Virus genome (UHGV): UHGV-0143126
Length of the DNA: 19,594 nt
Reading direction: 5' to 3' (one strand)
From: a virus
A model generated the notes under the pieces. That model did no database searches, was not told the DNA's origin, and saw only the letters and a program-made list of their open reading frames with translations. Below, in pieces: positions 8,643-17,616 of the stretch. Position numbers and translations under genes: made by a program. Numbering within the stretch: the first letter of the stretch is position 1; every line of letters begins with the position of its first letter.

Positions 8643-8841
8643 TCACTCAACATCAATAACGGGGAGCTGTTTCGCATAAAACGGTTCCGAAACATCCAAG
8701 AACAGTTCTAAAGATATCAGCAGCTATATGATCATTTCAAGACCAAATATTGATTCTGCAATTTCGGGACGTTACACTGTCTCCGCACCTTATAAAGCGG
8801 GTGCCGGGGGTCGCAGCCCGGAATTGCATACGGCGATATAC

Positions 8842-8861
8842 GACGCGCCAGCGTCTTTTTT
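8842..8861 (+). terminator. Weak terminator-like element (5-bp stem GACGC/GCGTC then TTTTTTA)
   Basis: Short stem, 4-nt loop, T6 run. Could be an attenuator ahead of the replication-gene block. Confidence 0.3.
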
Positions 8862-9027
8862 ATCGTCCGCGCTCACGCACGCCAGAATTATGGTGGGCTG
8901 GGCAGGGGAGCCGAAAGGCTCGCCGGTTTCCGTATGCGCCGGTACTGCGAACCCTGTTCAGTCTGCCACCAGTGAGTTTCGCAGCTCCGGTGGTGGAAGT
9001 TATCCATTGCATACGGAGGCTGCCATC

Positions 9028-14676: not shown

Positions 14677-15060
14677 ATGCGTGATATTCAGATGGTTCTT
14701 GAACGCTGGGGTGCATGGGCGGCAAATAATCATGAGGATGTGACCTGGTCGTCCATTGCTGCCGGTTTTAAGGGATTAATTCCTTCAAAAGTAAAATCTC
14801 GCCTGCAATGTTGTGACGATGACGCGATGATCATTTGCGGGTGCATGGCCCGTCTGAAAAAGAACAACAGCGATTTACACGATTTATTAGTAGATTATTA
14901 TGTATGTGGTATGACATTCATGTCACTGGCAAGTAAGCATTGCTGCTCGGATGGTTATATCGGGAAAAGGTTACAGAAGGCTGAGGGCATAATTGAAGGG
15001 ATGTTAATGACATTAGATATCCGGTTAGATATGGATATCGTTGCTAATAATTCTAATTGA
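14677..15060 (+). CDS. Q: Late-gene antiterminator Q (QuuD / phage-82-21 type), 127 aa
   Basis: [34 protein letters not shown]... matches QuuD-type Q as recalled; GGAGAAAG RBS before ATG 14677. Confidence 0.75.
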
Positions 15061-15082
15061 TATGCAATTGTTTACTAAAAGT

Positions 15083-15111
15083 TATTAAAAATGGGGCGTG
15101 GAAACGCCCCC
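15083..15111 (-). terminator. Intrinsic terminator for minus-strand transcripts (porin 3' region)
   Basis: Hairpin GGGGCG-UGGAAA-CGCCCC followed on the minus strand by AUUUUUAAU. Confidence 0.5.
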
Positions 15112-15248
15112 AAAATAAAGGGTAATATATAACAGAAGGTTTATATAGTAAGAAGTAAGGTAGTGCTTCTAAAGGAAGTGGCTTGAGGGCTCCACTTATA
15201 TGTTGCGGAGGCAAAGCCTCCCGCAACATATCTTTTTCGTAAGTCAGA
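15086..15248 (-). ncRNA. Candidate IpeX-like small RNA from the porin 3' UTR
   Basis: ~160-nt structured segment between the porin stop (15249) and the minus-strand terminator. Placement is by analogy with my recollection of ipeX next to nmpC in DLP12; not verified. Confidence 0.3.
15197..15238 (+). terminator. Strong plus-strand intrinsic terminator downstream of Q (candidate tR')
   Basis: 14-bp stem with one bulge (ATATGTTGCGGAGG / CCTCCCGCAACATAT), 5-nt loop, then CTTTTTC. Confidence 0.6.
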
Positions 15249-16331
15249 TTAGAACTGATAAACCAGACCTACAGCGGCGATGTCGTCGGTATCAATACCA
15301 GCTGTTTTGGTAAACTTACTATCGTCAATTAAGTTGATTTTGTAATCAACAAAAGTGGACATGTTTTTATTAAAGTAGTAAGTAGCACCGACATCGACAT
15401 ACTTGACTAAGTCTCGGTCACCATGAACACCAAGGTCTTTACCTTTTGACTGAAGGTAAGCAACAGATGGGCGCAGACCGAAGTCAAACTGATATTGTGC
15501 TACTGCTTCAAAGTTTTGTGCTTTGTTTGCAATATGGTTATTACCAAAAACGGTCATATTCTGAGTTTCAGAATATGTGGTAGCCAGATAGATATTGTTC
15601 GCATCATATTTCAGGCCTGCAGCCCATACTTCCGCATTTTTGCCGGAGGCATTGAATTTGCTCTTACCATAGGCGACCTGACCGTCAGTGCGATCTGATT
15701 TAGCATAGGTTGCACCCACGCCGAATCCTTCATACTCATAAGTAGTGGAGAAACCGAAACCATCACCATTGGCTTCAGTTACGTCAGTGCGGTCATTTTT
15801 ACCCTGATACTGAGCAGCAAAGTTCAGGCCATCGACCAGACCAAAGAAGTCGTTGTTACGATAAGTTGCAACACCAGTTGCACGTTGAGTCATGAACACG
15901 TCGGTTTGAGTCCAAGTGTCACCACCGAATTCTGGCAGGACGTCAGTCCACGCACCGATGTCGTATGCTACACCGTAGTTACGGCCGTAATCGATGGAGC
16001 CGTAGTCACCGAATTTCAGGCCAGCGAAGGCAAGACGGGTTTTATCTTTGGAGGAACCTTGAGATTCAGCGCGGTTGCCTTTGAATTCATATTCCCACTG
16101 ACCGAAACCAGTCAGTTGATCGTTGATTTGGGTTTCACCTTTGAAGCCAAGACGGGCATAAGTAGTATCACCATCATCTGCATCATTAGAGGAGAAGTAG
16201 TGCTTAGCATTAACTTTCCCGTACAGATCCAACTTGTTACTGTCTTTATTATAAATTTCAGCTGCCTGAGCAGACATCGCCATCAGTACTGATGCAGCTA
16301 CAGCAGAAATTGCCACTGTTAATTTTTTCAT
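15249..16331 (-). CDS. nmpC: OmpC/NmpC-family outer-membrane porin, intact, 360 aa
   Basis: Signal peptide [23 protein letters not shown], mature start AEIYNKD, porin repeats, C-terminal ...VGLVYQF. Start set at ATG 16331 rather than the upstream in-frame ATG at 16391. Confidence 0.8.
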
Positions 16332-16757
16332 CGTGAGCCCTTTTTTTGAACTATTATTAAAAAATGATGTCACTGCGCGATAAATATTCATCTAATCAAT
16401 GTGATTATTTCAAGATGTAAGTTTTGGTTTCTCGTTTGATTTGTGAAGTAGATCTCTATTTTTATCTGAACTTTTTTCTATCGAATCCTATTCATGGCTC
16501 TTGGCTGAATAAAAATAAATCTATTAGCCAATTTATATTAATGTCTGTTATTTATAAGCGCTCTATAATTTGAAGGTTCAATTTAAACAGGCTAAAAATA
16601 ACACTGGAAATTATTTGTTGGTTATTTGTTGAGATTTGCTTATGTATTTGTAGTGGTGTTTTCAATACTCGGTAGCATTCTCGCAAATATCATTTAGTGG
16701 TTTACGTACGTAAAAAATTGGTTATGCTATTAAGAGTGGTCACTTCGTCACACAGCT

Positions 16758-16791
16758 TAAACCCGCCGTCGAGCGGGTTTTTCCATTTTTT
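16758..16791 (+). terminator. Plus-strand intrinsic terminator ~110 nt upstream of the holin gene
   Basis: AAACCCGC-CGUCGA-GCGGGUUU followed by TTCCATTTTTT. Confidence 0.6.
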
Positions 16792-16903
16792 GAGTCTCGA
16801 TATTAGCTGATAACCCAATACCTGAGTTATTCACTGACTCCGAGTCTGTTACGTTTCGTAGTATTCCCTCAATTTACACCCGCTTTGTCTGCGAGGTGGG
16901 GTT

Positions 16904-17119
16904 ATGAAATCCATGGATAAGTTAACAACGGGTGTCGCCTATGGCACCTCAGCAGGTAGTGCCGGATACTGGTTTTTACAGCTGCTAGATAAAGTCACGC
17001 CCTCACAGTGGGCGGCAATTGGAGTGCTGGGTAGCCTGGTATTTGGCCTGCTGACGTACCTGACAAACCTTTATTTCAAGATTAAAGAAGATAAGCGCAA
17101 GGCTGCGAGAGGTGGATAA
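16904..17119 (+). CDS. S: Class II pinholin of S21 type with dual-start motif (M1/M4: antiholin/holin), 71 aa
   Basis: [28 protein letters not shown]...; two TM segments; GAGGTGGGG RBS; stop overlaps the endolysin start (TAATG). Confidence 0.85.
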
Positions 17120-17616
17120 TGCCTCCATCATTACGAAAAGCTGTTGCTGCTGCTATTGGTGGCGGGGCTATTGCTATAGCATCTGTGTTAATCACTGGCC
17201 CAAGTGGTAACGATGGTCTGGAAGGTGTGAGACATAATCCTTACAAAGACATAGTTGGTGTATGGACTGTATGTTACGGGCATACAGGAAAAGACATCAT
17301 TCCCGGTAAAACGTATACCGAAGCAGAGTGCAAAGCCCTCCTGAATAAAGACCTTGCCACTGTCGCCAGACAAATTAACCCGTACATCAAAGTCGATATA
17401 CCGGAAACAACGCGCGGCGCTCTTTACTCGTTCGTCTACAACGTGGGTGCTGGCAATTTCAGAACATCGACGCTTCTTCGCAAAATCAACCAGGGCGATA
17501 TCAAAGGCGCATGTGACCAGCTACGTCGCTGGACATACGCTGGCGGTAAGCAATGGAAAGGGCTGATGACTCGCCGTGAGATTGAGCGTGAAGTCTGTTT
17601 GTGGGGGCAGCAATGA
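17119..17616 (+). CDS. R: SAR endolysin (T4-lysozyme-like, R21 type), 165 aa
   Basis: N-terminal Gly/Ala-rich signal-anchor-release segment [16 protein letters not shown]; catalytic E-x8-D-x5-T ([16 protein letters not shown]). Confidence 0.9.

Follow-up and report, generated by a model that had tools for sequence, protein, structure and literature searches.

Among described late switches, that of phage 21 is one of the closest to the locus considered here. In the phage 21 record, which draws on published experiments, the -35 hexamer lies 7 nt past the Q stop codon and a 16-bp Q-binding element (QBE) sits between the -35 and -10 hexamers, followed by the transcription start, a pause element at +2 to +8 and a terminator ending near +50. 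In phage lambda, the stretch from +1 to +18 of PR' carries a sigma-dependent pause element and pause site. The Q21/Q933W proteins form the family PF06530 (bioRxiv 10.1101/651190). The lysis cassette of the E. coli K-12 prophage DLP12 is reported to be controlled by Q and RpoE, as cited in PMC7918800 (Rueggeberg 2013 for Q). In phage 434B, a DLP12 segment has taken the place of Q, the late promoter and the lysis region, and since this phage is viable (PMC9119081), the segment is functional as a whole. The comparative paper on the Stx pR' promoter (PMC6266700) contains no description of the promoter of a QuuD-type Q. No PR', QBE or tR' is marked at the locus in the annotations of K-12 (NC_000913.3) and phage 434B (OL657227).

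The window, which is the whole analysed stretch of 19,594 nt from the virus genome UHGV-0143126, comprises the early-right and late-left part of a lambdoid prophage. Its Q antiterminator gene, of the QuuD/DLP12 type, lies on the plus strand at 14677-15060 and encodes 127 aa (PF06530, E 2.9e-53). The protein matches K-12 quuD, more than 30 phage records name its homologues Q, and it is distantly related to phage 21 Q (PDB 6p18, E 1.4e-6). The gene is upstream of, and on the same strand as, the promoter-terminator element described below. Between the two, on the minus strand (15249-16331), is a porin gene of the NmpC/Lc/OmpD type, which aligns to K-12 nmpC and for which both the phage hits and the PA-2 lc record give the annotation porin; in relatives, this position holds other cargo or nothing. 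The lysis module begins with a 5' untranslated leader (16792-16903, plus strand), and its first late gene is an S21-type pinholin with a dual start (16904-17119), followed by a SAR endolysin (17119-17616), both on the plus strand. The holin, the endolysin and the spanins are all 3' of the terminator.

The porin and the holin are separated by a spacer. The first-pass annotation had recognized this spacer but placed its left edge at 16392, and that edge has to be moved. The porin ATG is at 16331 (MKKLTVAIS..., as in K-12 nmpC), and not at 16391, a start suggested by the longest ORF and disfavored by the alignment to K-12 nmpC. The spacer is therefore 16332-16903 (572 bp). It had also been described as free of ORFs, which holds apart from two short mechanical ORFs of 49 and 44 aa in the ORF list. 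A 38-aa minus-strand ORF across the promoter-terminator element, annotated in some phage records, is probably spurious. Aligned with the nmpC-essD spacer of DLP12 in E. coli K-12, the spacer shows 98.6% identity and no indels, and it is found in 2661 of the 5426 complete E. coli genomes, K-12 with its DLP12 included. In all of the hits listed from these genomes it carries no annotation.

The left 370 bp of the spacer are very AT-rich, as had been claimed, with a GC fraction of 0.275-0.305 over 16300-16700, and the repeated motifs reported there are present as a tandem direct repeat, with TTATTTGTTG at 16611-16620 and again at 16622-16631. It is plausible that this tract (16332-16700) houses the presumed promoter and regulator sites of the porin, together with plus-strand promoters directed towards the terminator, and it would then be the control region on the cargo side. 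The nmpC/essD promoter island is bound by H-NS (PMC3661553), and nmpC is repressed by OmpR (PMC5438342). A putative CRP site, mapped from the annotation of the PA-2 record, is located near 16440-16460.

We consider it probable that the remaining part of the spacer, 16701-16791, is the late control cassette of the Q gene at 14677-15060, consisting of PR', a candidate Q dyad, a leader and tR', and that it has been displaced by 1.67 kb through the porin cargo. This reading rests on the anatomy of the element, its linkage to Q, a start site carried over from K-12 by homology, and the parallel with phage 21.

The plus-strand terminator noted at first pass is found by the scan as an 8-pair stem at 16759-16780, and RNA folding gives the identical hairpin. 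Its stem, AAACCCGC/GCGGGTTT, contains five G-C pairs and encloses a 6-nt loop, and the tail TTCCATTTTTT extends to 16791. The intrinsic terminator (16759-16791, plus strand) would be tR' and close a leader RNA of about 48-57 nt. Upstream of it, the weak promoter that had been suggested is present, with TTTACG at 16701-16706, a spacer of 16 nt and TATGCT at 16723-16728. It matches 8 of 12 consensus positions, under the scan cut-off of 9, so that "weak" is a fair description. Conservation singles out TATGCT as the -10 hexamer of the late promoter: among 90 distinct variants drawn from many genera, 87 keep T-12, 89 keep A-11 and 89 keep T-7. A poor -35 region precedes the hexamer at a spacing of 16 to 19 nt, depending on the clade. 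A 32-nt core (16730-16761) occurs once in the window and in 0 of 200 shuffles, and recurs in more than 120 viral contigs.

The transcription start can be placed by homology to Cappable-seq data from K-12 (supplementary GTF of PMC4782308, in U00096.2 coordinates, which were converted via NC_000913.3 and the gap-free alignment). The plus-strand starts listed nearby are 573406, 575093, 575453, 576081, 576452 and 576907. Start 576452 corresponds to A16735 of the window, 7 nt past TATGCT, and the promoter is identical in K-12; the relative read score of 1.7 is weak. A plus-strand start within 16600-16750, as anticipated at first pass, is thus indicated by homology and by a weak signal. The curated K-12 Term-seq tables contain no plus-strand 3' end at the terminator, and the only ends there are minus-strand ones downstream of nmpC. 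The short RNA is therefore not abundant in the silenced cryptic prophage of K-12. Taken together with the weak start, this indicates that the promoter is not a strong constitutive PR' of the lambda kind, at least in an H-NS-silenced cryptic prophage. Two other -10 candidates were rejected for the window; in other clades either may be used. One is the hexamer AAAAAT of the A-tract (16713-16718), which would give a start near 16725 and has a poor -35 and no matching K-12 start. The other lies five nt upstream of TATGCT (TTGGTT here, TATTGT in other clades), with a start at 16730; this hexamer is poor in the window and poorly conserved, A-11 being retained in 46 of the 90 variants, and no K-12 start is listed at this position.

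Further plus-strand promoters are found at the porin end of the spacer. K-12 start 576081, with a relative read score of 90, corresponds to 16364, 7 nt past a TATTAT -10 hexamer (16352-16357), and represents a strong sigma-70 start that is antisense to the porin 5' UTR. A site resembling an RpoE-type promoter, GAACTA-16-TCACT, can be read at 16348-16374 (plus strand), with a start expected near 16380. PMC7918800 describes primers that reach from -121 to +650 around the RpoE-regulated start reported for the lysis cassette in Rueggeberg 2015, and their positions would put this +1 near 16380 as well. Given the local promoter and these upstream plus-strand promoters, the terminator takes in transcripts from both. 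Such an arrangement is also what would be expected if the terminator were an insulator against Q-independent transcription from the porin 5' end and the real PR' lay directly after Q, at 15061-15248. Transcripts from the strong start at 16364 would indeed run into the terminator, and so would those from the RpoE-regulated promoter, as placed by the PMC7918800 primers. The gap between Q and the porin, however, offers no sign of such a promoter. From the quuD stop to the 3' end of nmpC, K-12 Cappable-seq lists no plus-strand start, and nothing in the gap resembles the conserved element. What the gap does contain is a minus-strand terminator and a hairpin, both of which match minus-strand RNA 3' ends.

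The element was also followed across phages. In a BLAST search with 16690-16903, porin-less phages share only about 16705-16782, a stretch that comprises the promoter, the stem of the terminator and the short leader between them. In Stx2_95, the element begins about 40 nt past the stop of a 126-aa Q. In phiP27, SfII, cdtI and Stx2a_WGPS2, one or two unrelated genes are located between Q and the element. The Q proteins of these five porin-less phages belong to PF06530 and are about 46-49% identical to that of the window.

The 32-nt core was then compared with IMG/VR, giving 120 loci. Every core locus with enough upstream DNA (n = 104, including the window and L001-L007) has a PF06530 Q upstream on the same strand. 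In 8 loci, 28-39 nt separate the Q stop from the core. In the remainder the distance is 526-2921 nt, and 27 distinct cargo clusters, mostly on the opposite strand, fill the interval. Since a scan based on the core is biased towards the core sequence, the reverse, Q-first test was also run. For this purpose, 80 loci with Q homologues from species-representative genomes, collected independently of the element, were searched with a 72-nt profile on both strands (686 kb). All of the 75 profile hits are downstream of Q and on the same strand, and they cover 74 of the 80 loci; in four of the six Q loci that are left, the DNA downstream of Q is shorter than 1.7 kb. The hits that abut the Q stop (within about 30 nt) number about 30 and come from Xenorhabdus, Photorhabdus, Providencia, Trabulsiella and Pantoea; the non-abutting ones are 131-3569 nt away. 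Outside this profile search, a hit in which only the stretch from the terminator to S was matched (H58) represents an IS-mediated deletion and is uninformative.

An element that tracks Q downstream, with or without cargo in between, is what a late promoter-terminator cognate to Q, with a cargo slot in front of it, should look like. In the window the promoter is not adjacent to Q, as the core begins 1669 nt past the Q stop with the porin in between; we read this as displacement by insertion rather than as absence. A PR' located directly after Q is difficult to reconcile with an element that directly adjoins Q where relatives lack cargo and lies downstream of Q in so many independently collected loci, and we therefore regard that explanation as distinctly unlikely. 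An insulating role of the terminator is nevertheless compatible with the displaced late control cassette; only the location of PR' elsewhere conflicts with it.

An intrinsic terminator is found within a few tens of nucleotides after the leader in at least 55 of the 74 loci, often with a quite different sequence, so that unrelated terminators stand in for each other at a single position, as also in the variants L043 and L121. In relatives, late-gene modules are exchanged just past the terminator, where at least four different downstream sequences begin.

On the other side of the element, the interval between Q and PR' most likely serves as a recombination slot for cargo, judging from the sequences found in it. 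Several cargo proteins have PADLOC matches, namely KwaB of Kiwa (E 1e-143), PD-Lambda-1 (E 2e-89; the L22 gene of phiP27) and PDC-S20 (E 3e-177), as well as PDC-M53A, an HNH effector similar to PDC-M68A, and an OLD/Gabija-like ATPase. Four of the ten representative cargo proteins have no PADLOC match. The ORF beside the OLD/Gabija-like ATPase looks by eye like a cytosine methylase. As a general slot, it would carry dozens of different modules, among them porins, Kiwa, PD-Lambda-1, PDC-S20, HNH effectors, many unknowns, and the OLD-like ATPase with a cytosine methylase. The window cargo consists of the porin together with its own AT-rich control region. Being upstream of PR' and mostly on the opposite strand, the cargo is insulated from late transcription.

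The sequence upstream of the -10 hexamer varies between phages. In the window, a perfect 14-bp dyad, TTTACGTACGTAAA, occupies 16701-16714 (-34 to -21), overlapping the -35-like TTTACG, and is a candidate Q-binding element. In other phages the sequence here differs, yet each version consists of a dyad followed by an A-tract. The dyad classes are TTTACGTACGTAAA (and TTTACGATCGTAAA), GCGTACGC, GCGGTCCGC, TGTAATTACA, GGAATTCC and TTCGTAACGAA, and in the variants of each class that were inspected by eye the dyad center is 15 nt upstream of the -10 hexamer. When the Q proteins were clustered at about 60% identity, the dyad class matched the Q cluster almost perfectly, with one exception among about 170 loci, whatever the leader type or host genus. 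Over the same loci, the leader type goes with the host genus and is mixed within Q clusters. Xenorhabdus stockiae provides a direct comparison, as two of its loci have identical 32-nt leader cores but different dyads, TTTACGTACGTAAA (L141) versus GCGTACGC (L163). Because the dyad, unlike the leader type, covaries with the Q cluster, we propose it as a candidate Q-recognition element. Each cargo type is restricted to a single Q clade as well, so part of the association between Q and dyad could be due to inheritance as a block rather than to function.

From past the -10 hexamer to the terminator, the leader is far better conserved than either Q or the upstream promoter, with Q clades being only about 45-55% identical. 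Its core, AAGAGTGGTCACTTCG (16732-16747, plus strand), is marked by conservation as a candidate sigma-dependent pause element (AAGAGT) with a pause site (TTCG). A4 and T8 of the core motif, which belong to the AAGAGT element, are near-invariant and are followed by GGTnACTTCG. The majority leader, AAGAGTGGTTACTTCGCC, resembles the lambda PR' stretch +1 to +18, AACGATGGGTTAATTCGC. AAGAGT (16732-16737) is the best -10-like hexamer of the window leader. It straddles the mapped start at -3 to +3, which is 3-4 nt tighter than in lambda and phage 21, and no canonical pause element was found clearly downstream of +1 in this leader. A register starting at 16730 would set AAGAGT at +3 to +8, the phage 21 geometry. 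As to RNA structure, the dyad symmetries of the leader are nested and show limited covariation. One pair of a small 5' hairpin, GUGG/CCAC, covaries to some extent, but 21% of the variants are mismatched there, and with a fold z-score of only -1.2 no structure is claimed.

The strong conservation of a transcribed leader that ends in a terminator with a U-tail could also be explained if the RNA of about 50 nt acted mainly or additionally in trans, as an sRNA similar to StxS, with its sequence held constant by target pairing. There is a precedent, since in Stx phages the transcript of PR'-tR' gives rise to StxS (PMC7547250). Several observations speak against a role of this kind. No Rfam family covers the element, either at gathering thresholds or at E values up to 1, and the RNA lacks a 3' end in the curated Term-seq tables of K-12, as described above. 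The leader has no known target, and its pairing to hha, which the prophage sRNA HnrS targets, does not exceed that of shuffled sequences (-12.1 versus -11.1 +/- 2.7 kcal/mol). In addition, the likeness to the lambda PR' pause module accounts for part of the conservation. We therefore consider a trans-acting sRNA unlikely.

The conserved core has yet another possible meaning, that of a CRP site regulating the porin, as the PA-2 lc record would suggest. J02580 annotates such a site at 1067-1087, which corresponds to about 16735-16755, and its right half, TCACA, fits the consensus. The left half is poor, with TGGTC in place of TGTGA. Compared with TGTGA-N6-TCACA, the window has TGGTC-N6-TCACA and most variants have TGGTT-N6-CCACA, neither of which conforms. 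Moreover, some 400 bp separate the site from the porin ATG, and phages without a porin conserve the sequence too. The poor half-site and the conservation in porin-less phages lead us to reject this explanation, which we find scarcely credible.

The first-pass annotation had offered two readings of the terminator. According to one, it is the true tR', PR' lies in the interval before it, and the porin was inserted between Q and its promoter; this is supported by the linkage to Q, by the cargo-free relatives in which the element abuts Q, and by the phage 21 layout. According to the other, TTTACG-16-TATGCT drives a short RNA that ends at the terminator, which agrees with the K-12 start 7 nt past TATGCT and with the conservation of the -10 hexamer. 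The two readings describe one object, and both are supported.

We propose the following mechanism for the displaced cassette. In the lysogen, the weak promoter would initiate at A16735, and polymerase would halt at the hairpin 16759-16780, releasing an RNA of about 50 nt. The terminator would also block the plus-strand transcripts that start at 16364 and at the reported RpoE promoter. With both local and upstream transcripts stopped at this point, the lysis genes would remain silent in the lysogen. After induction, Q would bind the dyad at -34 to -21 and load onto polymerase paused in the leader. The Q-loaded polymerase would then become resistant to the terminator and proceed into S, R, Rz and the remaining late genes. 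We infer that read-through of 16759-16791 is Q-dependent, for which the viability of phage 434B with the DLP12 segment and the Q control cited for the cassette give indirect support; the binding of Q at the dyad and the pause are likewise inferred.

If correct, this assignment locates the late-gene switch for a very common type of prophage, at a position where the accessible genome annotations mark nothing, and it explains the "lone" terminator ahead of the lysis genes. For the control of lysis, it singles out the 90 bp that have to stay or that can be engineered. The dyad would provide a candidate recognition site for an uncharacterized branch of the Q21 family, and the clade-specific dyads would form natural sets for specificity swaps. 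Accessory genes, known defense systems among them, would be loaded upstream of PR' and expressed in the lysogen from their own promoters, which makes the slot a practical hunting ground for new defense or lysogenic-conversion genes. In the accessible literature, the primary DLP12 papers aside, neither a systematic placement of cargo between Q and PR' nor a clade-specific palindromic site is described. A broader proposal is that the Q-PR' junction is a general cargo slot of lambdoid prophages across Enterobacterales, that a clade-specific palindrome ties the promoter to its own Q, and that the leader of about 50 nt has a role beyond pausing, as a small RNA or as a recombination linker. We regard this as possible, while leaning slightly against it in its full form.

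Compared with other accessory loci, the slot resembles the cargo and defense hotspots of prophages, as it is fixed in place and highly variable in its content (Kiwa, PD-Lambda-1, PDC-S20). It differs from morons of the stx type, where stx is downstream of PR'-tR' and is expressed with the late genes, whereas the window cargo is upstream of PR'. The proposed short RNA is comparable to StxS in being a by-product of late-promoter termination in lysogens. Judged by the reported sizes and context, StxS is nevertheless distinct, being processed from a 258-nt transcript to 74 nt and belonging with a different Q allele. The DLP12 nmpC-essD region, with its 98.6% identity, is the same locus in a different strain.

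The layout shares with the PR'/6S RNA/tR' system of lambda that the transcript ends shortly downstream unless Q modifies polymerase. In contrast, the lambda Q belongs to an unrelated family (PF03589), its leader is 194 nt long instead of about 50 nt, and its promoter is strong and constitutive, whereas that of the window is weak. The correspondence with phage 21 is closer. Both have a Q of the PF06530 family, an S21-type holin with a SAR endolysin downstream, and the same order of parts, which in the window runs from the dyad (16701-16714) through the A-tract, the -10 hexamer (16723-16728), the start and the leader to a terminator ending 48-57 nt past the start. The differences lie in the details. 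The window Q has 127 aa rather than 162 aa and is only distantly related; its candidate site is palindromic over 14 bp, as against two directly repeated 8-bp subsites in the Q21 QBE; the -35 hexamer is weak, and the pause candidate straddles the start; and the cassette lies 1.67 kb from Q instead of 7 nt. In most testable respects, therefore, the element belongs to the late switches of the Q21 family, and its kind is a textbook one.

Inside the Q gene (QuuD-type antiterminator, 14677-15060, plus strand), the promoter-like sequence TTTACA-16-TATTAT at 14874-14908 on the plus strand matches at 10 of 12 positions. The plus-strand start at 573406 (U00096.2), detected by Cappable-seq in the DLP12 prophage of E. 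coli K-12 with a score of 9.3, coincides with this site. Together, the promoter match and the mapped start suggest that the 3' half of Q contains an internal promoter reading in the sense direction.

Just past the stop codon of the NmpC-type porin, on its downstream side, lie an intrinsic terminator on the minus strand (15083-15110) and a second hairpin (15203-15232). Both match strong minus-strand RNA 3' ends in the K-12 Term-seq data (574367 and 574476 in NC_000913.3). On the plus strand, the hairpin at 15203-15232 is in addition accompanied by a T-run, and it may therefore stop read-out from Q. The IpeX sRNA has been reported to be encoded in the region of these two structures.

At the other end of the porin, a strong K-12 plus-strand start, equivalent to 16364, is located 33 nt past the ATG of the gene and runs antisense to its 5' UTR. 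It adjoins an RpoE-like motif, GAACTA-16-TCACT, within 16348-16380 on the plus strand. Transcripts from this interval run toward tR', and expression of the porin could suffer interference from them.

Known or candidate anti-phage systems occupy the slot that separates Q from the late promoter in related loci such as L043, L014, L005, L113, L004, L036 and L105. These include Kiwa, PD-Lambda-1, PDC-S20, PDC-M53A, an HNH effector and an OLD-like ATPase, the last adjoining a methylase-like ORF; several two-gene modules in the slot of relatives matched no PADLOC system. Elsewhere in the window, Rfam gives matches above the gathering score to isrK (8785-8861, 57 bits) and to C4 antisense RNA (8886-8973, 80 bits), both on the plus strand, a pairing known from P1/P7-type antirepressor immunity modules.

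In some phage records, the promoter-terminator element is overlaid by an annotated minus-strand "hypothetical protein" of 38 aa (713-829 in PV340555.1, approximately 16702-16818 in the window); this gene was probably called in error by automatic annotation. The conserved core of this element, 16730-16760, shows nested dyad symmetry in the window and in related loci L132-L211, with outer arms TTAAG...CTTAA and inner arms GTGG...CCAC. Across this set, the outer arms show some compensatory changes (ATAAG/CTTAT and TTAGG/CCTAA), and one inner pair varies in a compensatory manner among G-C, G-U and A-U. The outer 5' arm is excluded from the PR' RNA because it lies upstream of the mapped start.

The leader 11-mer TGGTCACTTCG (16737-16747) is identical to positions +73 to +83 of lambda 6S RNA (lambda 44659-44669; 260-270 in L212, the lambda locus), for which we roughly estimate a chance expectation of ~0.003. 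This match to lambda could be a remnant of common ancestry of late leaders, or a coincidence.
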